Positions 2,555 through 61,499 of a DNA stretch of 64,000 nt are shown one piece after another (position 1 is the first letter of the stretch; every line of letters starts with the position of its first letter). The position numbers were made by a program, and so were the translations under genes. Under the pieces are notes generated by a model. The model made no database searches, had not been told where the DNA came from, and saw nothing but the letters and a program-made list of their open reading frames with translations. The stretch is from Planctomycetales bacterium (GTDB lineage: Bacteria > 4484-113), in the NCBI GenBank assembly GCA_030606285.1, contig JAUWGS010000002.1, forward strand, positions 125,612 through 189,611, given 5' to 3'.

Positions 2555-3010
2555 ATGGGGATTTCACCTGAGCTGGAGCGGAAGCTCGCGGAACTGCGCG
2601 CATCCGGCAAGAGCATCGTCTTCACCAACGGGTGTTTTGACCTGTTGCATCCGGGGCACATCCATCAGCTTCGCGAGGCGAGGGCGCAGGGGGATTTCCT
2701 CATCGTGGGCCTGAACTCCGACTCCAGCACGCGGCGGCTGAAGGGCGAGGGCAGACCGATGCTGCCCCAGGACGCGCGCCAAGAACTGCTCGAAGCTATC
2801 CGCTACGTGGACGCCGTAGTCATCTTCGACGAGGACACACCGGAAGCTCTCATCCGCGAAGTGCGCCCCGACGTGCTGGTCAAAGGCGCGGGATATGAAA
2901 TCAAAGACATTGTCGGCGCGGAGTTAGTTAAGGGATACGGCGGCCGCGTGCACCGTGTGCCGATGCTGCCCGGATATTCCACAAGCGAGCTGCTATCAAA
3001 GCTCAAGTAG
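2555..3010 (+). CDS. hldC: D-glycero-beta-D-manno-heptose-1-phosphate adenylyltransferase (RfaE domain II, cytidylyltransferase fold)
   Basis: 151 aa starting MGISPELERKL. HxGH nucleotidyltransferase motif FTNGCFDLLHPGHIH. The longer 2399 ORF start is an upstream artefact. Confidence 0.8.
   Translation: MGISPELERKLAELRASGKSIVFTNGCFDLLHPGHIHQLREARAQGDFLIVGLNSDSSTRRLKGEGRPMLPQDARQELLEAIRYVDAVVIFDEDTPEALIREVRPDVLVKGAGYEIKDIVGAELVKGYGGRVHRVPMLPGYSTSELLSKLK
2618..2640 (+). repeat. right copy of the 23-nt direct-repeat core (inside the hldC 5' coding region)
   Basis: Identical to 1608-1630. Confidence 0.7.
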
Positions 3011-18670: not shown

Positions 18671-19309
18671 ATGGAGTCACAAGATATTCGTGCTTTGCAA
18701 TTAAGGCTTGACCGGCTGGAGGCGAGACTCGCCTCGATTTCCCCACCATCCGTCCAGGAAGTATTAAGGGCAAAAACCTTTGAGGTCGTGGATGCCAGCG
18801 GGAAGCTAAGAGCGGGGCTTGGGACACACCCTGACGGCTCGCCGGCGCTGGTGCTCACTGACGCCAGCGGGAAGCCTAGGGCGATGCTTGACACAGACGC
18901 TGACGGCTCGCCGACGCTAGCGCTCTTTGACGCGAGCGGGAAGATAAGAGCGGGGCTTAGCACAGACGCTGACGGCACGCCAGGGCTGGGGTTCCATGAC
19001 GCCAGCGGGGAGGTAAGAGCGGGGCTTGGCATACTCGCTGACGGCTCGACGTGGCTGGAGCTCTATGACGCCAGCGGGGAGCCGAGAGCGGTGCTTGGGA
19101 TACTCCCTGACGGCTCGCCGGGGCTGGATCTCTATGACGCCAGCGGGAAGGCGAGAGCCGTGCTTCGCACACGCGCTGACGGCTCGCCGGGGCTGGGGCT
19201 CTTTGACGCCAGCGAGGAGCCGAGAGCGGGGCTTCGCACACTCGCTGACGGCACGCCGGGGCTGCGGCTCTATGACGCCAGCGGGAACGTGTTGTTCTCC
19301 GCGCCGTAG
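18671..19309 (+). CDS. tandem-repeat protein: N-terminal coiled-coil-like segment plus 8 x 20-aa repeats (DASGK.RA.L.T.ADGSPGL.LY); paralog of 1768-2535
   Basis: GGGAGG RBS. 60-nt in-frame tandem repeats (about 85% nucleotide identity between units). Same family as the cassette ORF at 1768. Confidence 0.55.
   Translation: MESQDIRALQLRLDRLEARLASISPPSVQEVLRAKTFEVVDASGKLRAGLGTHPDGSPALVLTDASGKPRAMLDTDADGSPTLALFDASGKIRAGLSTDADGTPGLGFHDASGEVRAGLGILADGSTWLELYDASGEPRAVLGILPDGSPGLDLYDASGKARAVLRTRADGSPGLGLFDASEEPRAGLRTLADGTPGLRLYDASGNVLFSAP
18791..19290 (+). repeat. about 8 tandem 60-bp coding repeats (unit gacgccagcgggaag..agagcggggctt..gctgacggctcgccggggctgg..ctctat)
   Basis: Period-60 repetition read directly. 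Explains the antisense pseudo-ORFs 18917-19369 and 18957-19475. Confidence 0.8.
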
Positions 19310-19343
19310 ACAGACGCAGCATTCTAGCTCGCGTGAGGAGTGA

Positions 19344-20345
19344 ATGATGGAAGTGCATCCTGAAAACAAACTGGTGAGGGACCGTCACTTGGCGACTGCT
19401 CGCGATATACTTGTAGACGAGCAGAATCCTTGGACGCTGGAAAGCAGAGGTGAGGACTGGATTCGCCAGATTCAAGCCGAGACTCTTGCATCTCTGCTAG
19501 CTTTCGTTGAGCAGTGTTTCCAAGAAGCCATGGATGCTGTTAAGCGGCGGCTAGCGATTCCTGGTGAGTTCAAGGGAGCCCTGGCAGAACTAGTGCAGCT
19601 ATTCGCCTTACATCCCCGCAATTCGCCGCCTAGGGCTGAGCTAGTTCCCTACGATCTGGAGTATGACCCTGGAAGCGGCAGCCCAGATATCAAGATTATG
19701 CTCAATGGCGGGAAGAGCATCGGGGTTGAAGTCGCGCATCTGGAGGTGAAAAAGCCTGTCAACCATTCCGGGGGTGACCATGGATCTGTTGAGATGAGGA
19801 TCGAGGAACCTATGCACAAACTCAACGCAGTACTTGAGGGCAAAGTCGGCAGTTGTAGAAACTGCGATGTTGAAGTGCTCGCGCTTGACCTCACGGAGTA
19901 CATTAAGAAGAGGGTGTTCGTGATAGGGGATGTGTCTTCGGTTACCCACCATTTAGAGAACTACCTGTACGGTCAGCTCAAGGTCAGCTTTGAAGTCGAC
20001 CGCCGCAACGGGAGAATCAGCAATGTCCACTATATTAGAGATACGAGTGAGCTGCCTACAGTGAAAGGAGAGGATGTGGAGGGCTTTTTCCTGCGTTGGC
20101 CACATGTAGGCGCCGTAATCTACTTCTGGTGTCGCTTCGACAGTGCTGGCTCCAGTGAAAGATTCATGTGTAATCTGTATTCGAGGCTCGCGCTAAACAC
20201 TAATCCCGCAACGCCTGAGGACAAGCGGTTGCCTTCGGACCTTGCGTCTGTGCTCACGAACGTGATGAATGAGTGCGGCCCTCTTCTGGTGAGCACTGGA
20301 GAACACGGGATTAGCACCGAGCCTGATGGGGAGTGCCATGCGTGA
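19344..20345 (+). CDS. hypothetical protein, paralog A of a ~320-aa unknown family (second copy at 22587-23540)
   Basis: Shared blocks with paralog B: ETLASLLAF, PYDLEYDPGSGSPDIKI, IGVEV, ELPTVKGE, AVIYFW, NVMNE. No known domain recognised. Confidence 0.5.
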   Translation: MMEVHPENKLVRDRHLATARDILVDEQNPWTLESRGEDWIRQIQAETLASLLAFVEQCFQEAMDAVKRRLAIPGEFKGALAELVQLFALHPRNSPPRAELVPYDLEYDPGSGSPDIKIMLNGGKSIGVEVAHLEVKKPVNHSGGDHGSVEMRIEEPMHKLNAVLEGKVGSCRNCDVEVLALDLTEYIKKRVFVIGDVSSVTHHLENYLYGQLKVSFEVDRRNGRISNVHYIRDTSELPTVKGEDVEGFFLRWPHVGAVIYFWCRFDSAGSSERFMCNLYSRLALNTNPATPEDKRLPSDLASVLTNVMNECGPLLVSTGEHGISTEPDGECHA

Positions 20346-20547
20346 ATATGAAGATATCAGAATGTATGTGCGCCGGAAGCACGGGAGAGCGGTAAAGACC
20401 TGCTGGATTGCCCATGTGAAGGAATTCAACGGCCTGAAACCGAGACGCGCGCAGAATCGGTTTCCTGGAGAAGGGCGGTCAAATCCTTGCCCCGAATGGG
20501 CCCGCCCTCTCATCGAAGAGGCGATGCGGCATTATCGGATGCTCTAG
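20338..20547 (+). CDS. small hypothetical protein (69 aa), start overlaps stop of paralog A (ATGCGTGA)
   Basis: ATG at 20338 overlaps the TGA of the upstream gene by 3 nt (coupling-type arrangement). Basic, Cys/His-containing. Coding status uncertain. Confidence 0.3.
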   Translation: MREYEDIRMYVRRKHGRAVKTCWIAHVKEFNGLKPRRAQNRFPGEGRSNPCPEWARPLIEEAMRHYRML

Positions 20548-20680
20548 CTGTTCTCAAGAGCCGGGCTAGTGAGCCCGCGTACTCTTAGAGTCTTGCTGAC
20601 GGCTGATGGCTGACGGCTGATAGCTGTCACCCCCCATGCTATAATCCTCGCAGCCCACACTGCATCCGCAAAAAACGCCT

Positions 20681-22036
20681 ATGTCTGCTGAAGAGAAGTT
20701 CGATGTAATCATCGTTGGTGCGGGGCTGGCCGGCATCACCGCGGCGCTCGTCTGCGCCCGCGCGGGCCTGGAAACGGTGGTCTTCGAGCGCGGCGAATAC
20801 CCCGGCGCAAAAAACGTCTCCGGCGGCGTGCTGTTCTCGCCCATCATCCACGAGCTCATCCCCAACTTCTGGGAAACCGCGCCCGTCGAGCGACCGGTCA
20901 CGCGCAAGGAGTTCTCGTTCCTGTCCCGCGACCGCTCGCTGGCGTTCGAGTTCTCGTCGGGCAAGTTCGCCGAGCCGCCCTACAACAACACGTTTTCCGT
21001 CCTGCGCGCCAAATTCGACCGCTGGTACGCCGAGCAGGCGGAAGAGGCCGGCGCGTTCTTCGTCACCGACACCGTGGTGGACGACATCATCATGGACGGC
21101 GGCAAAGCCGTTGGCGTGAGAGCGCGGCGCGATGAAGGCGAGATGTACGCCGACTGCGTCATCATCGCCGAGGGCGCGAACGCCTTCCTGCCGGAGCGGA
21201 TGGGCCTGCGCCAGCCGTTCGGCCCCCGCGACATGGTCACGTGCGCCAAGGAAGTGCTCTCACTGCCCGCGGAAGCCATCGAGGATCGGTTCAACCTGGA
21301 GCCCGGCGAGGGATGCAGCATTGACTTCTTCGGCGAGGGCGCGTGCAGAGGGATGCTCGGCGCGGGCTTCATCTACACAAATAAGGATACGCTGTCCGTC
21401 GGCATCGGCGTGGCGGTGAGCGACGTAATGAAGCGCAAACTCACGCCGTTCAACGTGCTGGAGTACTTCAAGAGTCACCGAAGCGTCCGGCGTCTGCTCA
21501 AGGACGCGAAGCTGGAGGAATACTCGGCGCACCTCATCCCCGAATACGGCTACAGGAAGTTCTATCCGCGCTATGGCGACGGCTGGATGATCGTCGGCGA
21601 CACGGCGGGCTTCGTGAATACGAGCCTGTACCACGAGGGCACGAACTACGCGACGATGAGCGGCAAGCTCGCGGGCGAAACGGCGGTCGCAGCGAAGGAG
21701 AAGAGCGATTTCAGCGTGGCAACGCTTGCGGCATACGATAAAGCGCTCGAAGAATCGTTCGTGATGCAGGATCTGAAGCGCTTCCGCGACGTGGCGAGCT
21801 TCATGCACAAGCATCCTGAATTCCTCGGCGATTATCCGGAGAAGCTCATCGAGATGGCGGAGCGCTACTTCACCGTAACCGGCGAGCCGAAGGAAAAGGT
21901 GCTCAAGCACGCTGTGCGCGGCTTCCGCAGCAAGCTGTCGCTGTTGCGCACGGCGCTTTCGTCGCTGGCAATGATGCAAAAGGTGCTGGGCATCGACCCG
22001 AAATGGTTCCTCTTTCCGGGCAAGGAGGAGAAATAG
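20681..22036 (+). CDS. fixC: electron-transfer-flavoprotein:quinone oxidoreductase FixC-like (FAD-dependent)
   Basis: N-terminal FAD fold FDVIIVGAGLAGITAALVCARAGLETVVFERGEYPGAKNVSGG. Length ~450 aa. Followed by a fixX-like ferredoxin. Confidence 0.75.
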   Translation: MSAEEKFDVIIVGAGLAGITAALVCARAGLETVVFERGEYPGAKNVSGGVLFSPIIHELIPNFWETAPVERPVTRKEFSFLSRDRSLAFEFSSGKFAEPPYNNTFSVLRAKFDRWYAEQAEEAGAFFVTDTVVDDIIMDGGKAVGVRARRDEGEMYADCVIIAEGANAFLPERMGLRQPFGPRDMVTCAKEVLSLPAEAIEDRFNLEPGEGCSIDFFGEGACRGMLGAGFIYTNKDTLSVGIGVAVSDVMKRKLTPFNVLEYFKSHRSVRRLLKDAKLEEYSAHLIPEYGYRKFYPRYGDGWMIVGDTAGFVNTSLYHEGTNYATMSGKLAGETAVAAKEKSDFSVATLAAYDKALEESFVMQDLKRFRDVASFMHKHPEFLGDYPEKLIEMAERYFTVTGEPKEKVLKHAVRGFRSKLSLLRTALSSLAMMQKVLGIDPKWFLFPGKEEK

Positions 22037-22522
22037 ATGGCTGAAGAAAAACACGAGCAGATGCTGGAGCTGATTGGCAAGAACGTCGAGGAAATCGGCG
22101 CGGGCGGACAGGGAAAGACGCGCGGCGTGCCGGGCGCGGACGCGAAGGCGTTTGACTGCACCCAGCCCGCAGGCGAAGTAAATATCCGCAGCCAGGAAGA
22201 TGCGTGCGAGCTGCACGCGCCACGCGAGAAGCTGCCCTACGAGATGGTGGCGCTGGACGATAAACTCGGCGTCACCAAGTTCGTGGCCGCCGACGAAGAT
22301 CCGCACCTGCTGGTGGACAACAGCATCTGCCGCGAGTGCCCCGGGCAGTGGTGCCTCTACGTGTGCCCCTCGCAGCGCTACAGCAAGGACGCGGACGGCG
22401 TCATCCACGTGGACAGCGAAGGCTGCTTAGAGTGCGGCACCTGCCGCGTCGCCTGCCTGCCGGGCGGTCTCTACTGGAAGTACCCCCTCGGCGGCTTCGG
22501 CGTGTGCTTCAGATGGGGGTAA
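22037..22522 (+). CDS. fixX: FixX-like ferredoxin-like protein with ~65-aa N-terminal extension
   Basis: C-terminal region CRECPGQWCLYVCP...CLECGTCRVACLP typical of FixX. Start codon immediately follows the fixC stop. Confidence 0.6.
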   Translation: MAEEKHEQMLELIGKNVEEIGAGGQGKTRGVPGADAKAFDCTQPAGEVNIRSQEDACELHAPREKLPYEMVALDDKLGVTKFVAADEDPHLLVDNSICRECPGQWCLYVCPSQRYSKDADGVIHVDSEGCLECGTCRVACLPGGLYWKYPLGGFGVCFRWG

Positions 22523-22586
22523 GCGCAGTTTGAGTGCCAGGATTAGAGAAGCACTCGGGCGTTGTGAACGTTACTAAGGACTACAT

Positions 22587-23540
22587 ATGAAGAAAGCGGA
22601 ATTGATTAGAGATGGGATGATGCCCAACGCCAAAGCTATTTTGGAGAAGACGGAGAATCCTTGGCGCATGCGGTGGGAAAAGGCTGAGTCGCTGCAGAAG
22701 TCTCAGACTGAAACCTTGGCTTCTTTGCTAGCTTTTATTAAAGCGCTGTTTCCAGAAGCTTTGAACGCAGTAAACCGTAGGCTTGGCAATCCACGAGAGT
22801 TTCTCAGCACACTCTCTGAGCTTACGCTGCTCTTCGTCCTTCATCCCGCCAGCTCTGCTCCTAAACTAGGGTTAGCACCATACGAACTTCAATACGACCC
22901 CGGCACAGGGAGCCCTGACATCAAGATCGACCGTCCTAATGAGCCTGCCATCGGGATAGAAGTAACCCGTCCGGGAGTTAAAGATGGTGTAAACCGTCTA
23001 CTTGTTTCCGACGATCCTGACCCGCGATCGGTAGATGAGAAAATTGCATATGAGATGCATAAGCTATTCGCTGAACTTGAGGAAAAGGTGGGGAAATTCG
23101 GTTCTAGTGGCATCAAGGTCATTGCTTTAGATATAACCGACTATATGGGGAGCATATTCCTGTCCGAGTACTCAGCCAGTTATCATATAGAGAGCTATCT
23201 ATATGGCCAGGCTAAGATGACGATAAGCGTACACACGAACGAGGTGTATGCTTGGCGCGATGCTAGCGAGTTGCCAACAGTGAAGGGAGAGGGCGTACAC
23301 TCCTTCTTTGACCTCCATAGGGATGTCGCTGCGGTAATTTACTTCTGGCACGACTATTACAGGGGATCGCCTATCGAGGGATACCGTTTCACAATATGCT
23401 CTAAGCTTGCAGTAAACCTGGCATCCCCTGAAGAACAGAAATTGCCTTGGAATCTGGCGTTTGCCTTATCTAATGTGATGAATGAAGGCGGTCCATTCAC
23501 CGTAGTAGACCTTAGAGGCTGGGGTGTGCGGGTAGTATGA
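22587..23540 (+). CDS. hypothetical protein, paralog B of the ~320-aa unknown family
   Basis: See paralog A. Same conserved blocks in the same order. Confidence 0.5.
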   Translation: MKKAELIRDGMMPNAKAILEKTENPWRMRWEKAESLQKSQTETLASLLAFIKALFPEALNAVNRRLGNPREFLSTLSELTLLFVLHPASSAPKLGLAPYELQYDPGTGSPDIKIDRPNEPAIGIEVTRPGVKDGVNRLLVSDDPDPRSVDEKIAYEMHKLFAELEEKVGKFGSSGIKVIALDITDYMGSIFLSEYSASYHIESYLYGQAKMTISVHTNEVYAWRDASELPTVKGEGVHSFFDLHRDVAAVIYFWHDYYRGSPIEGYRFTICSKLAVNLASPEEQKLPWNLAFALSNVMNEGGPFTVVDLRGWGVRVV

Positions 23541-23651
23541 ACTAGGAAGTGGCTTCGCAAGAACCATCCTGAGCTACTTGGCGATTGACGAGATAGTGTG
23601 GCTGCTGCTTTCGCTTTACCCCTCATCGAAAACCGCTTACAATAGCCAGCG

Positions 23652-23705
23652 ATGCCAGAGCGAACGCGGAGAATCGGCTATGGGATGCTGGTCTATCTTG
23701 AGTAA
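23652..23705 (+). pseudogene. relic of the nadD 5' end ([17 protein letters not shown]), left-hand copy of the repeat flanking the MNT-HEPN cassette
   Basis: First 8 codons identical to the real nadD start at 25038. 21-nt identical core gagcgaacgcggagaatcggc at 23658-23678 and 25044-25064. About 70-nt imperfect direct repeat 23612-23684 vs 24999-25073. Confidence 0.5.
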
Positions 23706-23748
23706 GGTCAGAGGACACATAGGTTGATGCGCTAGCCGGCCTAGCCAA

Positions 23749-23789
23749 TTGTGGTAGTATTAACCATGCTTGTGGTTATATTAACCATG
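23749..23789 (+). promoter_or_regulatory. two tandem 20-bp direct repeats (ttgtggtagtattaaccatg and ttgtggttatattaaccatg), each with a near-palindrome TGGT(A/T)(G/A)-N3-TAACCA; candidate operator for the wHTH-MNT protein
   Basis: AT-rich island in a GC-rich intergenic region, 120 nt upstream of the MNT gene. Confidence 0.4.
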
Positions 23790-23911
23790 ATTATGGAGAA
23801 TTCACGGATGAGATTCGACTATCAGACTATGAGGTGCCAAGTTGGCACCTCAATGATAGCGAAAACCTATAACCCGCACAGCTGTGCGCCGCAGCTGCTG
23901 GCCGCTGTTCT

Positions 23912-24517
23912 ATGAGAAAGAAGAACATAGTCGAATCGCTCTTTCCCCTCATCCGGCGACTCGTGCTCGGTGAACTCGTGCGTTCAAAGGGAGAGAGTAT
24001 TCATATTCACGAGCTGGCGCGACGTGTGGGGAAAGAAGCCAAGAGCGTCTACAACGAACTGAAAAACCTCGAAAACTCAAGTATCGTGACGTCTCAGCGT
24101 GTGGGCAATCAAGTCCACTACTCCCTCAATCCCGCCTGTCCGGTCTATCCCGAACTCCGGATGCTCATTATTAAGACCGTAGGACTGGTGGATGTAATGC
24201 GCGATGCGCTCAAGCCGTTGGCTAAGAAAATCAAGGTGGCCTTTATATATGGAAGCTTCGCGCGCGGCGAGGAGCGCGCAGACAGCGATGTTGACGTGAT
24301 GGTTATCGGCGATGTGTCCTTCGGCGAGGTGGTCAGTGCGCTGGTCCCAGCGCAGGAGCAGCTTCGGCGCGAGGTCAACCCTACGGTTTACCCGCCTGCG
24401 GAGTTCCGGGAGAAGCTGGCGTCGGGGAAGCATTTCCTGACCGCAGTGATGGGTGCGGAGAAGATCTTCCTGGTGGGCGATGAACGAGAGCTTGAGCAAC
24501 TTGGCGGACGGCGTTAG
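23912..24517 (+). CDS. winged-HTH (ArsR-like) plus minimal nucleotidyltransferase (MNT) fusion protein, antitoxin-like
   Basis: NTase motif GSFARGEERADSDVDVMVIGD (GS-x9-13-DxD). N-terminal wHTH. Paralog at 47852. Confidence 0.7.
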   Translation: MRKKNIVESLFPLIRRLVLGELVRSKGESIHIHELARRVGKEAKSVYNELKNLENSSIVTSQRVGNQVHYSLNPACPVYPELRMLIIKTVGLVDVMRDALKPLAKKIKVAFIYGSFARGEERADSDVDVMVIGDVSFGEVVSALVPAQEQLRREVNPTVYPPAEFREKLASGKHFLTAVMGAEKIFLVGDERELEQLGGRR

Positions 24518-24926
24518 GCTCGCCACCCACGAAACCAGCCCGGCGGAAATCGCCGAGCTGCTAGCGGTCGCCGACCGTGACCTTCAAGACTGCATCGACG
24601 GCAGGCTCAGTGCGGACAACCTGCTGAGCATTGCCTACAGCGCAGGCCTTGTCTGCGCGAAGATTGCGCTGGCCGCCGCGGGTTACCGGGCCGGCCACCA
24701 ATCCGCTCATTATTGGACCATTCAGTCCCTCAAGCACACTCTTGGCCTTGACCGGATGCTGGTTGACCGGCTTGATGCCTTTCGCAAGAAGCGCAACGTC
24801 AGCGACTACGAAATGGTGGGAGCCGTGACCGACCGGGAAGCGGACGAGATGCTGGAGCTTGCGAAGTTCCTTCGCAGCAAGGTGGAGGACTGGCTTCGGT
24901 CGCGTTATCCAGGTCTGCTTGCGTAG
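24480..24926 (+). CDS. HEPN / NTase-substrate-binding-like protein (putative toxin partner of MNT)
   Basis: Overlaps the MNT gene 3' end. All-helical. R-x4-basic segment RKKRNVSDYE where the paralog has RKRRHDVIYD. Start codon choice (24480) is uncertain. Confidence 0.55.
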   Translation: MNESLSNLADGVRLATHETSPAEIAELLAVADRDLQDCIDGRLSADNLLSIAYSAGLVCAKIALAAAGYRAGHQSAHYWTIQSLKHTLGLDRMLVDRLDAFRKKRNVSDYEMVGAVTDREADEMLELAKFLRSKVEDWLRSRYPGLLA

Positions 24927-25037
24927 GATTGTGCTTCACTCTTGTGCGCTATACACCAAGCTCTCAACAAGTAACAGCCAGCAGTCGACCCCTGTCTATC
25001 TTTACCCCATTCCTAAAAGCGCATACAATACGCACCG

Positions 25038-25670
25038 ATGCCCGAGCGAACGCGGAGAATCGGCATTATGGGCGGGTCGTTCAATCCCATCCACAACGGG
25101 CACCTCGTCGCCGCCCAGGAAGCGCACTGCAAGTTCAACCTGGAGCGCATCATTTTCGTACCCGCCTACCACAACCCGTACAAGACCGGCGAGAAGTACG
25201 AGCGCGAGCTGGCGTCCACCTTCCACCGTTTCACCATGATCGAGCTGGCAACCTCGTCCAATCCCGATTTCTACGTCTCCAGCTTCGAAATCGACCGCCA
25301 GACTCCAAGCTACGCGCTGGACACTCTCAAGCATTTCCACGAGGAGTTCGGGGAGGGCACCAGCCTCTACTTCATCACCGGGACCGACGCCGTGATGACA
25401 ATGCCCCACTGGCAGGGCGTCGAGGAGTTCCACAAATACTGCGAGGTCATCGCGGTGACGCGACCGAGCTACATTCCGCAGTACGAGGAGTTCCTCGGTA
25501 AAGTCGCGCACCTGGGCCTCAAAGTCTACTTCGTCACGATCCCGGCGCTGGAGATATCGTCAAGCGACGTCCGCGACCGCGTCCGGCGCGGCATGCCTAT
25601 ACGTTATCTGACGCCAACGAGCGTTGCTATCTACATCGAAAAGCACGGGCTGTATCAGGAACAGGAATAG
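25038..25670 (+). CDS. nadD: nicotinate-nucleotide adenylyltransferase
   Basis: Motif [11 protein letters not shown] (HxGH), ~210 aa. TACAAT -10-like hexamer 9 nt upstream of the ATG. Confidence 0.8.
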
Positions 25671-25728
25671 CGCAAGGTCTTGCCAGAGCGCTTCGCAAGT
25701 GGTAATATTATCGTTCGCGATTTGTCCT

Positions 25729-26100
25729 ATGCCGACGATTAATCAGCTAATTCGGAAACCGAGGAAGAAGTCGCGGCGCACTAGCGATGCGCCCGCGCTC
25801 AAATCCTGCCCGCAACGGCGCGGGGTCTGTACGCGCGTGTGGACGGTGACACCCAGAAAGCCAAACTCCGCGCTGCGCAAGGTCGCGCGGGTGAAGCTCA
25901 CAAGCGGCTACGAAGTCACAGCGTACATTCCAGGGGTCGGACACAATCTGGCCGAGCACAGCGTTGTTCTGGTGCGCGGCGGCCGCGTGAAAGACCTCGC
26001 GGGAGTTCGTTACCACGTCATTCGCGGCACGCTTGACACGGCAGGCACCAGCGACCGCAAGCAGGGCCGCAGTAAGTACGGTACAAGGCGGCCTAAGTAG
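25729..26100 (+). CDS. rpsL: 30S ribosomal protein S12
   Basis: [13 protein letters not shown]... [13 protein letters not shown] signature. Confidence 0.9.
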
Positions 26101-26109
26101 AGAGGGAGT

Positions 26110-26589
26110 ATGCCCAGAGATCCACGCAAAGTGCAGAGACACCCGCCAGAACCTGACCCGGTGTACAACTCCGTTCTGGTGTCCAAGTTCATCAGCAACA
26201 TAATGGGGCGCGGCAAGAAGAGCACCGCGCGGCGCATCTTCTACAACTCGCTTGCCATTATCGAGAAGCGGAACAAGGGTGAGGAGCCTCCTGTCAAAAT
26301 CTTTGAGCGCGCGATCCAGAACACGCTGCCCACGCTCGAGGTCAAGAGCCGCCGCGTAGGGGGCTCGACGTATCAGGTGCCGATAGAGGTGCGGCCGGAG
26401 CGAAGGTATGCGCTGGCAATGCGCTGGCTTATCGGTTACGCAAAACAGCGCAGCGGGAAGACTTTCTCGGAGAAGCTCGCTAACGAACTCATGGATGCGG
26501 CAAAGGGCGCTGGCACAGCCATCAAGAAGCGCGACGACACGCATAAGATGGCCGAGGCGAACCGCGCGTTTGCGCAGTATCGCTGGTAG
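26110..26589 (+). CDS. rpsG: 30S ribosomal protein S7
   Basis: MPRDPRKVQR...LANELMDAAKGAG. Confidence 0.9.
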   Translation: MPRDPRKVQRHPPEPDPVYNSVLVSKFISNIMGRGKKSTARRIFYNSLAIIEKRNKGEEPPVKIFERAIQNTLPTLEVKSRRVGGSTYQVPIEVRPERRYALAMRWLIGYAKQRSGKTFSEKLANELMDAAKGAGTAIKKRDDTHKMAEANRAFAQYRW

Positions 26590-47851: not shown

Positions 47852-48439
47852 ATGTCGCCAACAGATCTACTGGCTGTCCTCCTACCCCGGGCGCGGCGAG
47901 CGATACTCGCCGAGCTTTTCGCGCGTCCGGACGAGCGGCTGCACCTGCGCGAGCTTGAACGGCGCACCGGTCTTAATGCCAAAGGACTGATGCGCGAGCT
48001 GCATTCGCTCACCGAGGCCGGCATACTCGCAGCGCAGCGCTCCGGTAATCGAGTATACTACCGGGCCAATCCCGATTGCCCGATTTACTCGGAGCTGCGC
48101 GCACTGGTTCTCAAGACCGCAGACCTCGCGGGAGTCTTGAAGCAGGCGCTTGAGCCGCTTGCCGACCGCATCGTACTCGCATACATCTACGGTAGTCACG
48201 CCACAGGCGAAGCCGGTCCAGAAAGCGACATTGATCTTATGCTGGTGGGTGAGCTTGCGCTTTCGGACATCGCATCGCCCATCGCGGAGGCCGAGCGGGC
48301 GCTTTCCCGCGAGGTTAGCCCGACGCTCTACGCGCCCGAAGAATACCGGCGCAAGGCCAGCGACGAAGACGGCTTTGTGGCGAAGGTGCATCGCGGCGCG
48401 AAGATTGTATTGCTGGGAGACGCAGATGAAGCTGTATAA
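47852..48439 (+). CDS. winged-HTH plus minimal nucleotidyltransferase (MNT) protein, paralog of 23912-24517
   Basis: GSHATGEAGPESDIDLMLVGE NTase motif. N-terminal wHTH. Start overlaps a palindrome GGCGAtatgTCGCC. Confidence 0.7.
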   Translation: MSPTDLLAVLLPRARRAILAELFARPDERLHLRELERRTGLNAKGLMRELHSLTEAGILAAQRSGNRVYYRANPDCPIYSELRALVLKTADLAGVLKQALEPLADRIVLAYIYGSHATGEAGPESDIDLMLVGELALSDIASPIAEAERALSREVSPTLYAPEEYRRKASDEDGFVAKVHRGAKIVLLGDADEAV

Positions 48440-48440
48440 G

Positions 48441-48902
48441 ATGGAGGAGCGCGGGTACCTCGCGCGGATCACGCCCAGCAGGGACGATCTGGCGCACCTG
48501 ATAACCGCGATCCAACGCCGGCTGATGGATGCGAAAAACGTAACCGTTACGCGGGAGAACCGGCTCCAGCAGGCGTACCAGGCCGTCTTGCAGGTCGCCA
48601 TCGCCGCGCTTCACGCGAAGGGCTACCGGCTGAAGAGCAAGCCCGCGCATCACGTTATGGCGATAGAGAGCCTGGAGCACACCATCGGCGTTGAGCGTGG
48701 GCTGCGCGACTACTACCAGTCGCTGCGCAAGCGTCGCCACGACGTAATCTACGACGCCATCATCTCGGTGTCGGAACAGGATCTGGAGGAGGCTATAGAG
48801 CGTGCTGAAGGCCTGTTCGCAGCATTCCGCGAATGGCTGGAGAAATATCAGCCGGATCTGGTGGACGCCTCCATCTGGCACCGCCCGGCGGATCCAGGCT
48901 AG
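48441..48902 (+). CDS. HEPN / NTase-substrate-binding-like protein, paralog of 24480-24926
   Basis: ATG directly after the MNT stop (alternative ATG at 48426). R-x4-H segment LRKRRHDVIYD. Confidence 0.55.
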   Translation: MEERGYLARITPSRDDLAHLITAIQRRLMDAKNVTVTRENRLQQAYQAVLQVAIAALHAKGYRLKSKPAHHVMAIESLEHTIGVERGLRDYYQSLRKRRHDVIYDAIISVSEQDLEEAIERAEGLFAAFREWLEKYQPDLVDASIWHRPADPG

Positions 48903-49107: not shown

Positions 49108-49473
49108 GGGGGTGACCTGGTTTCGACCGGAAGAGTTGAAGGCGAGGTCGCGGCAGGTGGCAGCCCACGACGTCCACCTAAATCACGCGTGGGAATGGTT
49201 CAAGCGCCAACTATCAGCTTGCTGCAGCTTAAGCTTTAGGCTGCACCTCGATCGGCGCGTCGCCCGGGGCGCGTCGGCGGGGCAAAGTTCCCGGGCTTTC
49301 CGCCGGAGCTGGCCGGCCCGGTGGGAGACATAGGCCTGCACCTCAGGGGCACGGGTGTTCGCGCGCCGTCCCTTTGGTTAAGAGCGCCTGACGCGAAAGA
49401 GCGTGGACTATTGCCGTAGACGCCGCACCGGAAGCTTCCTGGGACGGGGGTTCGACTCCCCCCACCTCCACCA
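49108..49473 (+). ncRNA. ssrA: tmRNA (ssrA), 366 nt, CCA encoded; predicted tag ending ...ANYQLAAA*
   Basis: 5' GGGGGUGACCUGGUUUCGAC start. Acceptor pairs GGGGGUG / CACCUCC with a G3:U70 wobble (AlaRS identity element). 3' GGACGGGGGUUCGACUCCCCCCACCUCCACCA T-arm and acceptor. In-frame tag gcc aac tat cag ctt gct gca gct taa. Confidence 0.8.
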
Positions 49474-49475
49474 GC

Positions 49476-49498
49476 CTTCGCCAAGGCTTCGGCTGGCA
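49476..49498 (+). repeat. left copy of 23-nt identical direct repeat ccttcgccaaggcttcggctggc, immediately 3' of the tmRNA CCA
   Basis: Identical to 50216-50238. Contains an imperfect hairpin with GCTTCGGC (UUCG-type loop). Confidence 0.7.
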
Positions 49499-49616
49499 AG
49501 CCCGTTCTCGTATAGATGTGCTGAGAGCGTCGAGGATTCATTCTCTTGCGAAGGCTGGTGCCCGACGTAGCTTTAGCGAAGTCGGGCCGGCGTCTCCTGC
49601 AAGATTGGGGGAACGT

Positions 49617-49859
49617 ATGCACTACGTATACTTGCTGAGAAGCACATCTGAACCCAAGCAAACTTACATCGGGATCACAACAGACCTGAAGAAGCGCTTG
49701 GCGAAACACAACAACGGCAGCGGTTACCACACGTCTAAGTACCGCCCGTGGGAGTTCGTTATGTACTGCGGCTTCCGATCCTCTGAGCGGGCTACCGCAT
49801 TTGAGGCTTATCTGAAGACTGGTTCGGGCAGGGCGTTCGCCCGCCGGCATTTCTGGTAG
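49617..49859 (+). CDS. small GIY-YIG nuclease-superfamily protein (YhbQ-like), copy 1
   Basis: HYVYLLRSTSEPKQTYIGITTDLKKRLAKHNNG (GIY...YIG). 80 aa. GGGGGAACG RBS. Confidence 0.7.
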   Translation: MHYVYLLRSTSEPKQTYIGITTDLKKRLAKHNNGSGYHTSKYRPWEFVMYCGFRSSERATAFEAYLKTGSGRAFARRHFW

Positions 49860-49892
49860 CCTTCTCGCTCGCAGCCCTGCGAAGAGAGAAGG
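49860..49892 (+). terminator. imperfect hairpin after GIY-YIG copy 1 (ccttctcgctcgcag-ccc-tgcgaagagagaagg), no T-tract
   Basis: 14-15-bp inverted repeat read by eye. Terminator function not established. Confidence 0.25.
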
Positions 49893-49955
49893 ATGGTGCC
49901 CTCCATAGCCTTGGCGACGGAGGGCTAAATGGCCCATTGAAACTGCGAGCTACAG

Positions 49956-50213
49956 ATGGCAGGCCATATGATGTACTACACTTACGTCCTTGAGAGTGAA
50001 GCAAAGCCCGGGGTGCGTTATATCGGACATACATCCGATCTCAAGCAACGCATTTCTAATCACAACAGCGGAAAAAGTGCTCACACCGCGAAACTGCGTC
50101 CCTGGAAACTCAAGCTCTATATTGCATTTGAAGATCTCGAACATGCCCGGCGTTTCGAGCGCTACTTGAAGAGTGGCTCCGGCCACGCGTTCGCCACTCG
50201 CCACTTCTGGTAG
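49956..50213 (+). CDS. small GIY-YIG nuclease-superfamily protein (YhbQ-like), copy 2 (true start possibly MMYYTYVL, a few codons in)
   Basis: YYTYVLESEAKPGVRYIGHTSDLKQRISNHNSG. About 50% identical to copy 1. Stop abuts the right direct repeat. Confidence 0.7.
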   Translation: MAGHMMYYTYVLESEAKPGVRYIGHTSDLKQRISNHNSGKSAHTAKLRPWKLKLYIAFEDLEHARRFERYLKSGSGHAFATRHFW

Positions 50214-50215
50214 CC

Positions 50216-50238
50216 CCTTCGCCAAGGCTTCGGCTGGC
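50216..50238 (+). repeat. right copy of the 23-nt direct repeat
   Basis: Identical to 49476-49498. Confidence 0.7.
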
Positions 50239-55187: not shown

Positions 55188-55658
55188 CTAAGGCTCCTCG
55201 CCGCTCACCTTGTTGATATCAAGTATGCCCTCGGAGGCTTCCCGCTCTTCCTTCGCTTTCTTGCACGCCGGGCACAGGCCAAGGAGCTCCAGCCGATGCC
55301 CGATAACCTCATAGTCGCAGAGATCGCGGAACGCCTGCTCCAGGTATGTAAACGGCTGCACGGGCAGATTCTCCACCCGGCCGCAGCGTGCGCATCTGAC
55401 GTGGTAATGGTCCTTCGTGTCGGCGTCGAAGTGCTTCTTCGAGCAGCCGACTTCGAGCACCTGGATCTTTCCCCATTCGCATAGGGCTTCGAGGTCCCGG
55501 TAGATGGTGCTCATGCTGATGCGCGGCAGGCGCTTCCTGACCGCCTCGTAGACCTCGTCGGCCGTGGGATGGCAGTCAAGTTTCCTTATTTCCTCGAGGA
55601 TAACCCGCCGCTGCCGGGTCATCCTGAGTTCCTGATTTGACGAATTGCGATTACCCAA
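55188..55658 (-). CDS. Fur-family transcriptional regulator (Fur/PerR/Zur-type), copy 2
   Basis: MTRQRRVILEEI DNA-binding helix. Two CxxC pairs (RCARCG, CPACK). Start 30 nt after the nuoF-like stop; alternative start MTRQRR. Confidence 0.7.
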   Translation of the reverse strand: MGNRNSSNQELRMTRQRRVILEEIRKLDCHPTADEVYEAVRKRLPRISMSTIYRDLEALCEWGKIQVLEVGCSKKHFDADTKDHYHVRCARCGRVENLPVQPFTYLEQAFRDLCDYEVIGHRLELLGLCPACKKAKEEREASEGILDINKVSGEEP

Positions 55659-55688
55659 GTACAGACATTTTACCTCATCTTTCTGTAC

Positions 55689-57581
55689 TTAGGCAGCCCC
55701 CGCGGGCGCCACTGCGGGTGACCTTTTTTCGACGGCATTCTCTTTACATATCTGCACGCAGGCGCCACACTTGTCGCAGAGAGTCTGGTCGATCTCACGC
55801 AGCAGCCCTTCCTTGCGCTTCTGTCTTCGAACAGAATGGATAGCTAAGGACGCACAGGCTTCTTCGCATTCGCCGCAGCCGTTGCAGAGGTCAGGAACGA
55901 TGTGATAGGAAATGAGCGATTGGCATACTCCCCCGGGGCACTTGTGCTCAACGATGTGAGCAGTGTATTCATCCCGGAAATACTTGATGCTGGACAGCAC
56001 GGGGTTGGGAGCTGATTTCCCGAGTCCACAGAGCGCAGTTGCGGCAACCGTCTCGGCAAGTTCCTCAAGGTCGTTGATATCCTTGAGCTTACCTTGCCCG
56101 TCGCAGATCCGGTGCAGAATCTTGGACATCTGCCTGAGCCCCTCGCGGCAAGGGAGGCACTTCCCGCAGCTTTCGTCGATGAGGAAATCGATGAAGTACT
56201 TGGCCACGTCTACCACACAGGTGTGTTCATCCATCACGATCATCCCGCCCGAGCCCATCATTGAGCCGGCATCAGTCAGCGCATCAAAGTCAACGGGAAG
56301 ATTAAGCTTGCTCTCCGGCAGCATCCCTCCGGACGGTCCTCCGGTCTGAACCGCTTTGAACTTCCCATCCTTCTTTATGCCGCCGCCGATATCATAAACG
56401 ATTTCCCGCAGCGAAGTGCCCATTGGCACCTCTATCAGCCCGGTGTTGTTGACTTTGCCCACGAGCGAGAAGACCTTGGTGCCCGGGCTTCCTTCCGTTC
56501 CGATGCCGCGGAACCACTTGGCGCCCTTGTTGATGATGTGCGGGACGTTCGCCCAGGTCTCGACATTGTTGAGGGTCGTCGGTTCGTCGTGGAAGCCCTT
56601 TTCAGTGGCGTGGGTGAACTTGTCGCGCGGCTCGCCAACCTGTCCGTCAAGCGAGCGCATGAGGGCCGATGACTCCCCGCAGACAAAGGAACCTGCACCG
56701 AACGTCATGTCGATATCGAAGCTGAAGTCGGTGCCGAGGATATTGTCACCCAGCAGGCCAAGTTCCCTGGCCTTGTCCAGCGCTGCGCTGAAGGTCTTGA
56801 CAGCCTGAGGATATTCGTGGCGTATGTAGATGTAGCCGTTGGTTCCTCCAATTGCGTACGCGCCGATGAGCATTCCCTCAATCACCGAATGCGGGTTGCC
56901 CTCCAGGACCGCTTGGTCCATGAATGCGCCGGGATCACCCTCGTCGGCGTTGCAGATGATGTGCCGGCGGTCGCCGGGAGCTTCCTTGCAGCTCTTCCAC
57001 TTCCAGCCTGCCGGGTATCCGGCGCCTCCGCGCCCCCGCAGGTTCGCCTCAATCATCTCCTCGATAATGTGTCCAGGCTCCATCACCTGCAGGGCTTTCG
57101 CGAGCGCGGAATATCCACCGTGCGCCAGATAGTCATCGATGCGGAGAGGGTCGACATAGCCATTCAGCGCCAGTACGATACGGTGCTGTTTCGAGTAAAA
57201 CTCGATCTCGTGCTCCCGTCCCAGTTTTTCGCCGGTACCGGGATGCGTGTATAGCAGGCGGTCAACCACCTCATCTTCCTCCTTGGTAGACCGCATGATA
57301 TCTGTTACATCGCCGGGCTTTACCATATGGTAGAAGATGTTTGCCGGACGGACAACGCTGAGCGGACCGTATTCACAGAAGCCCTGGCACCCGCTTTTGA
57401 TGAACCTGATATCGCTGCTCCCTGTGGTCAGCTTCTCGAAAACGTTCGCGACTTCCTCTGAGCCTGCGGCCCGGCACGACGCTCCCTGGCAGACGGAAAT
57501 GACGAGCGGGTACTCCTCGAACTCACGGCGGCACTTGTCCTGAAACAGCTTGAACTGCTCGATGCTCCTAAGCTTCTCCAT
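55689..57581 (-). CDS. NuoF-like flavoprotein (NADH dehydrogenase 51-kDa-type; HydB/HndC-like with N-terminal [2Fe-2S] thioredoxin-like domain and C-terminal 2x[4Fe-4S] domain), copy 2
   Basis: RGRGGAGYPAGWKW FMN/NADH motifs, NADEGDPGAFMD, ESCGKCLPCREG 4Fe-4S motif, C-terminal CxxCxxCxxxC pairs. Confidence 0.8.
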   Translation of the reverse strand: MEKLRSIEQFKLFQDKCRREFEEYPLVISVCQGASCRAAGSEEVANVFEKLTTGSSDIRFIKSGCQGFCEYGPLSVVRPANIFYHMVKPGDVTDIMRSTKEEDEVVDRLLYTHPGTGEKLGREHEIEFYSKQHRIVLALNGYVDPLRIDDYLAHGGYSALAKALQVMEPGHIIEEMIEANLRGRGGAGYPAGWKWKSCKEAPGDRRHIICNADEGDPGAFMDQAVLEGNPHSVIEGMLIGAYAIGGTNGYIYIRHEYPQAVKTFSAALDKARELGLLGDNILGTDFSFDIDMTFGAGSFVCGESSALMRSLDGQVGEPRDKFTHATEKGFHDEPTTLNNVETWANVPHIINKGAKWFRGIGTEGSPGTKVFSLVGKVNNTGLIEVPMGTSLREIVYDIGGGIKKDGKFKAVQTGGPSGGMLPESKLNLPVDFDALTDAGSMMGSGGMIVMDEHTCVVDVAKYFIDFLIDESCGKCLPCREGLRQMSKILHRICDGQGKLKDINDLEELAETVAATALCGLGKSAPNPVLSSIKYFRDEYTAHIVEHKCPGGVCQSLISYHIVPDLCNGCGECEEACASLAIHSVRRQKRKEGLLREIDQTLCDKCGACVQICKENAVEKRSPAVAPAGAA

Positions 57582-58098
57582 TGTTTTCCTCCTTGTTGGC
57601 CCGTTTCCTGAGCCTTTTCACAAGCGCATCGACCCGATCGTGCGTTACATTCGCGTGGTATTCGCCGTCGACCACAAGGACCGGGCCCATAGAGCACGCG
57701 CCTATGCAGTTGACAGACTCCAGCGTGAACAATCCATCATCAGACGTCCCGTTCCAGGGGATCCCGTGCCGCTTATCCAGCGTTTTTGCTAGCAGTGCCG
57801 AACCTAGTATGTAGCAGCCAGTGCCCGTGCAAAGCTGCAGGATGTGCTTGCCCCGCTGCACGAGGCTGAACACTTTGTAGAAGGTTGCAATGTGGTAGAT
57901 CTGACCTTTGGGAACGCCAAGGCGTATCGAGATGTACTCCAGAGCCTCCTGAGGAAGCCAGTTGTACTTCTCCTGGACGGCGAGCATGGCCATGATAGTT
58001 TTCGACGGATTGCCCGCCCACTTCCCTATGAGATCTTCGACTTCTCGTTCGATTTCGCTTGCCGGTTCCGTCATCTCTGGATGTCCGGTTGCTTCCAT
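57568..58098 (-). CDS. NuoE-like [2Fe-2S] thioredoxin-like subunit (24-kDa-type), copy 2
   Basis: LAVQEKYNWLPQEALEYIS...CTGTGCYILG...CIGACSMGPV. Confidence 0.8.
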   Translation of the reverse strand: MEATGHPEMTEPASEIEREVEDLIGKWAGNPSKTIMAMLAVQEKYNWLPQEALEYISIRLGVPKGQIYHIATFYKVFSLVQRGKHILQLCTGTGCYILGSALLAKTLDKRHGIPWNGTSDDGLFTLESVNCIGACSMGPVLVVDGEYHANVTHDRVDALVKRLRKRANKEENNGEA

Positions 58099-58323
58099 AG
58101 TTCATTCCTCCTCGTTTCGTTCTCATGCCAATCGGATGCTCAGTCGACCCTCATAGCACCTCCCCCTTATTGCGCAATCAGCGCAGTCTTGCGAATACGC
58201 AGCTCGTAATAACTCCTATTTCCCTTCAGCTTCTTAACCGGACATCTGTAGCGTGAGCGCATCTCCGCAAAACCCTTACACAATAATAACACCTATTCTA
58301 GCAATGTCAAGCTCATTCTATCA

Positions 58324-58920: not shown

Positions 58921-58948
58921 CTGTTAGAGACCATCTGCCCTGTCTCCG

Positions 58949-61370: not shown

Positions 61371-61407
61371 CTCCGATGCCCTTTCGCTATTGTCTTCATA
61401 ATTAGCG

Positions 61408-61499
61408 AATAGGAACTATTCCCATTATATCGTCCGAAATGGGGTCTGTCAACCCCCTGTAAGGAAATTTAACCTATGCAAATAGGAATTATTCCCATT
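61408..61499 (+). promoter_or_regulatory. two copies of AATAGGAAnTATTCCCATT (61408-61426, 61481-61499), 73 bp apart, in the promoter region of cassette 1; palindrome GGGGTctgtcaACCCC between them
   Basis: AT-rich motif island in a GC-rich intergenic region. Related motif upstream of cassette 2. Candidate binding site for the co-transcribed Fur-family regulator. Confidence 0.45.

Follow-up and report, generated by a model that had tools for sequence, protein, structure and literature searches.

In the 64,000-nt stretch of DNA analysed here (the window, to which all positions refer), nadD, the gene for nicotinate-nucleotide adenylyltransferase, is intact (25038–25670, + strand), and its beginning is present twice. 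The ORF of 210 aa matches Pfam CTP_transf_like (E 5.5e-21), and the NadD proteins of relatives, syntenic with rpsL-rpsG-fusA, are 80–94% identical to it, which bears out the initial annotation in taking the right-hand copy for the real nadD start. The two copies form an imperfect direct repeat of 73/75 nt (23612–23684 versus 24999–25073), placed by that annotation exactly where repeat search, MAFFT alignment and nhmmer also find it. The repeat search returns an ungapped stretch of 65 nt (23614–23678 versus 25000–25064) with 83% identity at a spacing of 1386; the MAFFT alignment carries the similarity across a 2-nt indel as far as TATGGG; and nhmmer, run with a profile of the module, matches at 23613–23684 (E 3e-21) and 24999–25073 (E 6e-24). 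The copies differ at 11 positions and share an exact 21-nt core, GAGCGAACGCGGAGAATCGGC, which has two occurrences. A 41-nt pattern, TACAAT-N8-ATGCCNGAGCGAACGCGGAGAATCGGC, matches at 23638 and 25024 only, with 0 matches expected from 100 shuffles.

Each copy comprises a promoter, an ATG and about 11 nadD codons. The promoter has the form TTTACC-17-TACAAT in both (23615–23643 and 25001–25029); the TACAAT hexamer that had been described as lying about 9 nt before the ATG is indeed there twice, at a spacing of 8 nt. In the right copy (24999–25073, +) promoter and start codon are the active ones, and in the left copy (23612–23684, +) they are a relic, whose reading frame is shifted by a 2-nt deletion and which encodes, as the sequence had been read before, a truncated ORF of 17 codons (23652–23705, +). 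An exact look-up of the NadD protein for strain variants, in its 210-aa and 200-aa forms, returned no record.

Between the copies lie 1.3 kb in which, as first described and as the listing of ORFs and repeats confirms, there are only a tandem 2 × 21-nt repeat and two overlapping ORFs. The tandem repeat, TTGTGGTnnTATTAACCATGn (23749–23790, +), is operator-like, each of its units being internally palindromic; it is kept upstream of the gene pair in two relatives (L001 and L005), and in a third (L085) a different repeat is coupled with a different wHTH domain. The first ORF (23912–24517, +) joins a wHTH to a minimal nucleotidyltransferase (MNT) and is a candidate MNT-type antitoxin: its N-terminus is ArsR-like, it matches Pfam NTP_transf_2 (E 4e-8) and also Polbeta, PADLOC matches it over its full length to PDC-M05A (E 6e-69), and the GSx10DxD motif in its translation, YGSFARGEERADSDVDV, is invariant across five homologs. 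The second ORF (24480–24926, +), whose start was picked by alignment with relatives, overlaps the first by 38 nt and matches PADLOC PDC-M05B (E 3e-45); with these two matches, the proposal of an MNT/HEPN-type cargo holds. The pair is made of two overlapping, co-oriented genes with a putative autoregulatory operator.

How far does the second protein resemble a HEPN toxin? It has no match in Pfam, its PDB profile match to a HEPN protein reaches only E 0.76, and its single-sequence AF2 model is weak (pLDDT 62.7); the top Foldseek matches of that weak model are nevertheless HEPN domains (2hsb, E 0.013, prob 1.0; range E 0.013–0.1). The Rx4–6H motif is lacking in the window, where RKKRNVSDYE carries an Asp at the position of the His of L001/L006 (RIKRHAAHYE), and therefore an RNase activity of the HEPN-like partner is not to be assumed. 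The same position is occupied by Asp in L005 and by Glu in L009, and the Arg of the motif and the downstream Tyr-Glu are invariant among the compared homologs. The MNT and HEPN proteins of relatives are 57–75% and 45–79% identical to those of the window, versus 80–94% for NadD, and because the pair diverges more than NadD, its sequences suggest an old mosaic resident of the position upstream of nadD.

Upstream of the left copy lies ORF317 (22587–23540, +), an accessory gene in the variable spacer between fixX and nadD, which has no Pfam, NCBIfam or PADLOC match and whose AF2 model, built on a five-sequence alignment, is unusable (pLDDT 44). A homolog (92%) stands in the same place in L085, where the ORF317 block (91% nucleotide identity) is followed directly by the pair, without the filler S2 and without the relic; in the window itself, ORF333 (19344–20345) is a paralog, 44% identical. 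The patch around ORF317 has a GC content of 0.47–0.52, versus about 0.60 in the flanks, and low GC is common to ORF317, relic and operator. Three window-specific fillers separate the recognisable parts: S2 (23556–23611), between the end of the L085 homology at 23555 and the relic; S4 (23685–23742), a 58-nt leader that runs from the relic to the operator, with homology to L001 beginning at 23743; and S6 (24927–24986), a 60-nt spacer from the HEPN stop to the B-type promoter, with homology to L001/L006/L085 beginning at 24987. None of the fillers has a match in the window or in 100 fetched loci, and their single-strand folds, like that of the relic, are no better than those of shuffles (z +0.7 to +1.45, the latter for S2).

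Comparison with nine related loci reveals six architectures between fixX and nadD. In five of them (L001, L005, L006, L009 and L085) the pair stands directly upstream of nadD and nhmmer finds no left copy; L002 and L008 retain a decayed 117-nt remnant of the pair; and L003 has an empty fixX-nadD site, the uninterrupted upstream region that the initial annotation had proposed to look for. The order pair, B-type promoter, nadD, which we call donor-type, is found in L001, L006 and L085, and an A-type promoter without the pair in L007 and L008. Most variable is the slot between fixX and the pair, which is empty or holds Memb328, ORF334, ORF237 or ORF317. The fixX-nadD spacer is a variable hotspot for differing small accessory genes. 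No relic copy is detected by nhmmer in any of the nine close loci, and the whole block 23556–23742 is absent from them; the upstream copy is a relic that belongs to no conserved gene, which would have counted against the initial annotation. The repeat flanks the cassette in the window, as had been described, but does not delimit it regularly: five relatives have the pair without a second copy and L002/L008 only a remnant.

Nor is the left copy simply a diverged duplicate of the right one, as first described: read against the relatives' sequences, the two nadD copies are chimeric. On the right, the promoter part shares 92% identity with that of L001/L006/L085 and 74% with the left promoter, and the left promoter part, which is A-type, has its closest match in L007 (31/38 identical, hand count on the alignment; 82%, versus 74% to the right copy), so that each is nearer to another genome than to its sister. 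By contrast, the 21-nt core is the same in both copies and differs by 3–5 nt from all nine relatives, and the core region shows 1 substitution and one 2-nt indel over 35 nt. The identity within the repeat switches within about 8 nt of the ATG. In all five contexts of the promoter module, divergence begins exactly at (G)CTTTACC. Sliding identity is uninformative on a recombination breakpoint inside nadD, because conservation of its first 180 nt extends to every lineage.

A second case occurs in the same window at hldC, and the parallel drawn in the initial annotation (relic start, cargo, intact gene with restored start) is real. Directly after hldA lies a relic of the native hldC start (1549–1637, +; 29 codons, ending IVFTNGCFEL*), recognised by its match to the native start of relatives; then follows the cargo ORF255 (1768–2535, +), a membrane-anchored repeat protein with no close homolog and 2884 distant matches, which have multiple matched stretches of the repeat-family type; and then, as repeat search and the relatives' alignment indicate, the intact hldC (2555–3010, +), whose 15-codon N-terminus is new, as is its promoter, TGTATAAT, 7 nt upstream. 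The repeat (1590–1635 and 2600–2645) has an exact core of 23 nt, and the restored start is that of a diverged hldC homolog. The site is empty in six loci, which stand for five distinct relatives (L088/L089, L090, L091, L092 and L093; L094 has the same sequence as L093 there); in them the hldA stop is followed by 2 nt and then the hldC ATG. As judged from these alignments, polarity at hldC is unambiguous, the relic being the native start, because it adjoins hldA, matches the native start and is accompanied by five empty relatives. A third lineage, L095, carries a different, 832-aa cargo at the hldA-hldC junction. At nadD and hldC alike, the duplicated segment is the sole homologous stretch between the end of the insert and the target, and its two copies form a chimera of two lineages; pattern searches read no motif common to the two cores. 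When the start and end of every gene in the window were compared by local Smith-Waterman alignment, the search for further relic starts returned, true paralogs aside, only nadD and the hldC junction. Both nadD and hldC are nucleotidyltransferase-fold genes.

Several classes of mobile element were considered for the nadD locus. No recombinase or integrase is encoded between the repeats, in ORF317 or in ten further ORFs of the window. An integron cassette was rejected, there being no attC-type hairpin (folds of S2, S4, S6 and relic equal those of shuffles) and no integrase found, as was a transposon or IS, with no convincing terminal inverted repeat, no transposase ORF and a repeat of 65–75 nt that is chimeric. 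A search of 22000–26000 gave no Rfam match to a known RNA element at E <= 1, and a phage origin was dismissed with 0 matches of the core and operator pattern in viral contigs. SXT/R391 elements in prfC belong to the islands that replace the 5' end of the gene they enter. The dusA-specific islands likewise enter their gene at its 5' end, for which they bring a substitute (PMC4482086). Like these islands, the window shows a remnant 5' end, cargo and a gene restored by the insert, with imperfect direct repeats of target-gene sequence around an identical core of about 21 bp. The islands, however, measure 10–100 kb, carry their own integrase beside the target and have both half-sites in every copy, whereas here the insert is 1.3 kb, no recombinase was found, and, although one empty site exists (L003), 0/5 of the pair-bearing relatives have both half-sites, their copies of the cargo being without the left one.

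Other known systems resemble parts of the locus. In insertion-duplication through one crossover of a recircularised fragment, and in homology-facilitated illegitimate recombination (HFIR; PMC3240628), foreign DNA likewise comes to lie between duplicates of part of the sole homologous stretch without a dedicated recombinase; the experimental duplications comprised 109–950 bp of identical DNA, against about 70 nt of diverged sequence with 21–23 nt exact here, where moreover the event became fixed in a natural genome and affects the start of an essential gene. Displacement arrays at Rhs/CDI/T6SS effector-immunity loci (PMC5361080) share the conserved anchor segment, the displaced old variable part that stays as an orphan attached to some of that segment, and the many alleles per locus. 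There, however, toxin genes have their 3' ends displaced; here the displaced parts are promoters and 5' ends, the genes are housekeeping ones (nadD, hldC), and each locus has one relic. The cargo itself, with its overlapping genes for an NTase and a HEPN-like helical protein and strong matches to both, resembles MNT-HEPN systems and the candidate defence system PDC-M05 (PMC12988326), from whose typical form it departs in the N-terminal ArsR-like wHTH on the NTase with its matching putative operator and in the His-to-Asp exchange of the HEPN motif.

What, then, placed a second nadD start upstream of the first? The duplicated start looks like a recombination scar and not like the edges of a self-mobile element. 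Starting from the directly observed duplication, chimerism, hotspot, empty sites and hldC polarity, we infer for nadD a recombination route and a polarity: homology-anchored insertion-duplication of a relative's DNA at the hotspot, for which no dedicated recombinase or att site would be needed and to which we assign a probability of about 0.5. The incoming DNA would have comprised the 58-nt leader, the operator, the wHTH-NTase/HEPN pair, the 60-nt spacer and a B-type nadD promoter, and homologous exchange in the first ~30 nt of the coding sequence would have linked it to the resident nadD, the 21-nt identical core being the perfect-identity block where the exchange occurred. The likeliest route would be a single Campbell-type crossover of a circularised fragment with homology confined to the nadD promoter and start; the product of an HFIR-like 'displacement' event would be no different. 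Either way, the A-type promoter of the resident gene, with its first 11 codons, would have been pushed upstream as the relic, and the imported promoter would now drive nadD, whose mRNA is probably leaderless. The same process would have put ORF255 between hldA and hldC, and a crossover between the cores would delete the pair and bring back an intact nadD with its A-type promoter (A-type promoter and core joined to ATTATGGGCGGG).

This reading is preferred because the repeat is chimeric, donor-type arrangements are present and the locus is a hotspot; because polarity at hldC is clear and the exact cores measure 21 and 23 nt; and because there is experimental precedent and no recombinase (in the ORFs scanned), filler fold or Rfam match was found. 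A block of 21–23 nt is near the minimum of identity for RecA-type exchange. As for precedent, 56/60 Escherichia coli integrants of DNA with one-sided homology were single crossovers of recircularised molecules, in which some of the homologous stretch became duplicated (PMC3240628), and displacement arrays that leave orphan fragments are found at T6SS and Rhs loci (PMC5361080). Several points count against it. The expected recipient (fixX-ORF317-S2-A-type promoter-nadD without the pair) was found in no database locus, and a donor with the exact set (L005-like HEPN, S6 and B-type promoter) was not found. A reciprocal single crossover of diverged partners does not by itself yield identical cores, which require a donor sharing the 21 nt, or heteroduplex repair. 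Homologous exchange over 21–23 nt is inefficient, and yet two events lie within 64 kb; and the common break at (G)CTTTACC could reflect a specific site, or selection for a -35 element.

The pair, moreover, is present here in most relatives and could be ancestral, the relic having entered from the left. On this reverse polarity, the pair and B-type promoter already stood beside nadD, and the relic came with ORF317 and S2 from a donor in which ORF317 immediately preceded nadD, the incoming DNA being anchored through fixX homology, with an illegitimate join just upstream of the operator. One-sided homology with an illegitimate join is classical HFIR (PMC3240628), the fixX-pair slot is the most variable part of the locus, ORF317, relic and operator are alike in their low GC, and the pair adjoins nadD across relatives whose NadD is 80–94% identical. 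We nevertheless consider such an order rather unlikely: in L085 the ORF317 block precedes the pair without S2 or relic, so that ORF317 and relic are separable; the relic core is that of the window's own nadD, unlike every relative, and would call for a conspecific donor or later gene conversion; and the same architecture at hldC has the relic as the native sequence. The pair, more probably than the ORF317 block, was the last to arrive at nadD. A local duplication followed by divergence, be it a long transposon-like target-site duplication or a tandem or slippage event, would account for the near-identity of the native-looking cores, which over 35 nt differ by 1 substitution and one 2-nt indel; but each promoter part is closer to another genome than to its sister copy (92% versus 74%, 82% versus 74%), and terminal inverted repeats and a transposase are lacking, which leaves it very improbable. 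A target-site duplication of 65–75 nt would also far exceed those of known transposases.

Site-specific integration would account for other features. Here the 1.39-kb unit would be a non-autonomous cassette integrated by a tyrosine or serine recombinase encoded elsewhere, with an att site that mimics the nadD promoter and start (left copy attL, right copy attR, 21-nt core the crossover), on the pattern of the islands that target dusA or prfC, or of a cis-mobilisable element in decay. Imperfect repeat, short identical core, remnant and insert-supplied 5' ends are the layout of such islands (PMC4482086); homology stops sharply after the core at nadD and hldC alike, the promoter-module contexts all break at one nucleotide, and two events fall within one 64-kb window. 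Against this stand the lack of a recombinase in the cassette and in the other window ORFs scanned (a scan that was not exhaustive), the five relatives that hold the pair here without a left half-site, cores without a common motif at nadD and hldC, the lack of viral matches to core and operator, and cargo that differs between nadD, hldC and L095; we regard it as unlikely. More doubtful still is the idea that the lineage has a dedicated new way to insert small cassettes that lack a recombinase at the 5' ends of essential genes, by a trans-acting recombinase reading the ~21-nt cores, the cassette bringing a leaderless promoter and replacement start codons on which the essential gene would then depend. 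Finally, the source is an assembly from an uncultured organism, strain mixtures are common, and an artefact or a two-strain chimeric join in a metagenome-assembled genome might be suspected. The Logan assembly of run SRR14876847 (L086) is 100% identical to window positions 19279–26345, reproducing the 7-kb arrangement, and has the hldC arrangement as well, though both assemblies were probably built from the same reads; with 11 differing positions the copies are not easily collapsed or mis-joined, and the sequence between them is unique, so that an artefact is scarcely credible.

Returning to homology-anchored insertion-duplication, the locus would be a natural example of an essential gene whose promoter and first codons were swapped for imported ones, with accessory genes slipped in and the former start surviving as a dated scar. 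The PDC-M05 pair at nadD appears to be a long-standing mosaic polymorphism and not a recent insertion. If the homology-anchored reading is true, 20–25 identical nucleotides at the start of a conserved gene suffice to capture toxin-antitoxin or defence genes without the machinery of a mobile element, and such captures would be reversible via the same repeat. Relic gene starts could therewith be a searchable marker of recent gene gain in uncultured genomes.

The nadD locus is arranged as follows. From upstream to downstream, fixC and fixX (20681-22522) are followed by ORF317 (22587-23540; low GC, no family match), a unique 56-nt filler (S2), the left repeat copy (23612-23684), a unique 58-nt filler (S4), a palindromic tandem repeat of 2 x 21 nt (23749-23790), the wHTH-nucleotidyltransferase (MNT) gene (23912-24517), the HEPN-like gene overlapping it (24480-24926), a unique 60-nt filler (S6) and, at the downstream end, the second repeat copy (24999-25073) with nadD (25038-25670), then rpsL-rpsG-fusA. 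The direct repeat that the initial annotation had placed at nadD was recovered by repeat search (23614-23678 versus 25000-25064; 65 nt ungapped, 83% identity, 1386 nt apart), by MAFFT alignment, which carries it across a 2-nt indel to a TATGGG common to both copies, and by a promoter/start module profile matching both places (E 3e-21 left, 6e-24 right). The 41-nt pattern TACAAT-N8-ATGCCN-GAGCGAACGCGGAGAATCGGC matches solely at 23638 and 25024, and had no match in 100 shuffles. Both copies carry a sigma-70-like TTTACC-17-TACAAT, 8 nt between the -10 element and the ATG, no Shine-Dalgarno sequence, and about 11 nadD codons after the ATG; because the -10 element lies so close to the ATG and no Shine-Dalgarno sequence intervenes, the nadD mRNA is probably leaderless. 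The intact nadD (210 aa; Pfam CTP_transf_like, E 5.5e-21) begins in the right copy, and the left copy carries a 2-nt deletion that leaves a reading of 17 residues, in keeping with the proposal that the former is the true start and the latter a relic. Two assemblies give the same arrangement (19279-26345 is 100% identical in the Logan assembly of run SRR14876847), and the intervening sequence is unique, which makes an assembly artefact unlikely.

The cargo had been described as an MNT/HEPN toxin-antitoxin pair, and its type holds: the pair matches the two subunits of PDC-M05, a candidate system in PADLOC (E 6e-69 and 3e-45). In the literature, PDC-M05 comprises an NTase and a HEPN protein and is toxin-antitoxin-like, its antiviral role being unconfirmed (PMC12988326). 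Taken by itself, the HEPN-like assignment of the partner protein is tentative; the protein has no Pfam match, and the best Foldseek matches of its single-sequence AlphaFold model (pLDDT 62.7) are HEPN domains (E 0.013-0.1). At the position where the canonical, catalytic HEPN histidine is expected (window 24780-24800, residues ~101-110), the window copy and that of the relative L005 have Asp, L009 has Glu, and L001 and L006 have His, the adjoining Arg and Tyr-Glu being invariant.

What occupies this position in relatives? Two scans with NadD, one of genomes and one of metagenomes, together with look-ups via ORF317 homologs, recovered nine close loci with NadD 80-94% identical to that of the window. 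The uninterrupted upstream region looked for among them is found in L003, an empty site where 65 nt separate fixX from nadD. The pair alone lies between fixX and nadD in L009; it is preceded by a 328-aa membrane protein and an operator in L005, by ORF334 and an operator in L001, by ORF237 in L006, and by a 92% ORF317 homolog with a different operator and wHTH domain in L085 (fixX lying upstream in L005, L001 and L085). L002 and L008 have fixX, a 117-nt pair remnant, the membrane protein seen in L005 and nadD, and L007 has different upstream genes. The remnant (L002 166-282, L008 526-642) runs from the MNT 3' end to the HEPN 5' end, is 90% identical to window 24457-24573, and lies between fixX and the membrane-protein gene; L005 has that gene on the opposite flank of an intact pair, and the spacer genes thus occur in permuted order. 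Profile search found a second promoter/start module copy in none of the nine relatives. The direct repeat is peculiar to this genome. It is not a standard boundary of a mobile toxin-antitoxin cassette, and the earlier interpretation is partly supported overall. The pair (MNT 57-75% and HEPN 45-79% identical to the window's, versus 80-94% for NadD) is thus a widespread, strongly diverged occupant of the position upstream of nadD. It is also mosaic: across window 23743-24144, compared in L001, L005, L006, L009 and L085, the operator and wHTH module occurs in three types, operator and wHTH changing together, with a breakpoint inside the nucleotidyltransferase gene at about 24103-24144.

On the other side of fixC-fixX, ORF333 (19344-20345) is a 44% identical paralog of ORF317, and each of the two is located in a low-GC patch. 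Members of this family share the conserved motifs GSPDI...IGxEV and YGQxK but match no known domain; the neighbours of one homolog, P0004 (L087), are an Avd-like gene and a PLD/SNF2-helicase gene. The ORF at 18671-19309 contains at least five tandem copies of a 69-nt unit (18782-19290; 76-81% identical), also present in L005. Farther downstream, between the point where the ribosomal-protein cluster ends and the tmRNA gene (49108-49473), is a second PDC-M05-type pair (47852-48902; E 9e-64 for A, 4e-32 for B), and the window therefore holds two paralogous pairs. Two small GIY-YIG-like ORFs (49617-49859, 49968-50213) follow immediately on the tmRNA 3' end, flanked by the two exact copies of a 23-nt direct repeat, CCTTCGCCAAGGCTTCGGCTGGC (49475-49497, 50216-50238); the stretch 49475-50238 is possibly a small insertion at the tmRNA site. 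On the minus strand, a three-gene unit of ~3.27 kb is tandemly duplicated (55188-58100, 58459-61412; nucleotide identity 74-88%, the first gene 94% identical at its N-terminus).

The two nadD copies make up a chimeric repeat. Over the 38 nt preceding the ATG, the right copy (B-type promoter) is 92% identical to L001/L006/L085 and 74% to the left copy (A-type), whose closest relative is L007 (31/38, counted by hand on the alignment, the identity table being out of register for this locus). The 21-nt core is identical in both copies and differs by 3-5 nt from every relative, and the promoter-type mismatch nearest to the ATG is 3 nt upstream of it. Since the copies are chimeric between lineages, a local duplication, whether of a target site or in tandem, is excluded; an exchange between the nadD 5' regions of two lineages, near the start codon, is needed.

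The parallel drawn earlier with hldC also stands. After hldA comes an hldC relic of 29 codons (1549-1637; ...IVFTNGCFEL*), then the cargo ORF255 (1768-2535), a TGTATAAT promoter 7 nt upstream of the new ATG, and intact hldC (to 3010), relic and gene being linked by a repeat of 46 nt with 87% identity and an exact core of 23 nt; the Logan assembly reproduces this arrangement. Six loci, counted as five distinct relatives (L088/L089, L090, L091, L092, L093; L094 is identical to L093 here), have the hldA stop, 2 nt and the hldC ATG, an empty site whose native start the relic matches. Codons 1-15 of restored hldC code for a diverged version of the hldC N-terminus; P0009 and P0010 have one of this kind too. 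At hldC the polarity is clear: the relic is native, a foreign start came in along with the cargo, and the join on the right is homologous. At this junction L095 carries a different gene (832 aa, opposite strand); the TTATAAT promoter and the hldC N-terminus are new there too, but a relic is missing. The -10 hexamer lies 7-8 nt before the ATG, without a ribosome-binding site, at nadD (25024-25040), restored hldC (2543-2557) and L095 (3114-3129), suggesting leaderless transcripts for nadD and restored hldC; the native hldC start of relatives is, unlike the restored one, coupled to the hldA stop.

How might such chimeric copies arise? Homology-anchored recombination at a hotspot, without dedicated machinery, is the explanation with the best support. 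A donor fragment from a relative already having the pair beside nadD, with the nadD promoter and start as sole homology, would have recombined inside the identical block, most likely by a single crossover of a recircularised molecule that left the homologous segment duplicated on either side of the insert. At 21 and 23 nt, the exact cores come close to the shortest stretch of identity that RecA-type exchange requires. In E. coli, one-sided homology gave duplications of 109-950 bp as the dominant outcome (56/60 integrants; PMC3240628), and T6SS and Rhs arrays are generally accepted to form by displacement that leaves orphan fragments behind (PMC5361080). The architecture here matches 5'-end-replacing islands or, in mirror image, displacement arrays, but it is found at housekeeping gene starts and apparently without a recombinase.

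A non-autonomous cassette with site-specific integration of the dusA/prfC type would likewise fit the architecture, by analogy with the 21-bp semiconserved core and remnant 5' end of such elements (PMC4482086), and would account for all promoter-module contexts breaking exactly at (G)CTTTACC; however, no recombinase was found among the scanned ORFs, pair-carrying relatives have no left half-site, and the nadD core is unrelated to the hldC core. With reversed polarity, the relic would have entered from the left with ORF317. This reading fits the ancestral look of the pair, but it must invoke a conspecific donor or gene conversion for the genome-specific identical core, and L085 has ORF317 without a relic.

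If homology-anchored recombination built the locus, nadD would now depend on an imported promoter, and the relic promoter would still face the pair, with the operator in between. Crossing over between the two cores would delete the pair and restore an intact nadD under the A-type promoter.
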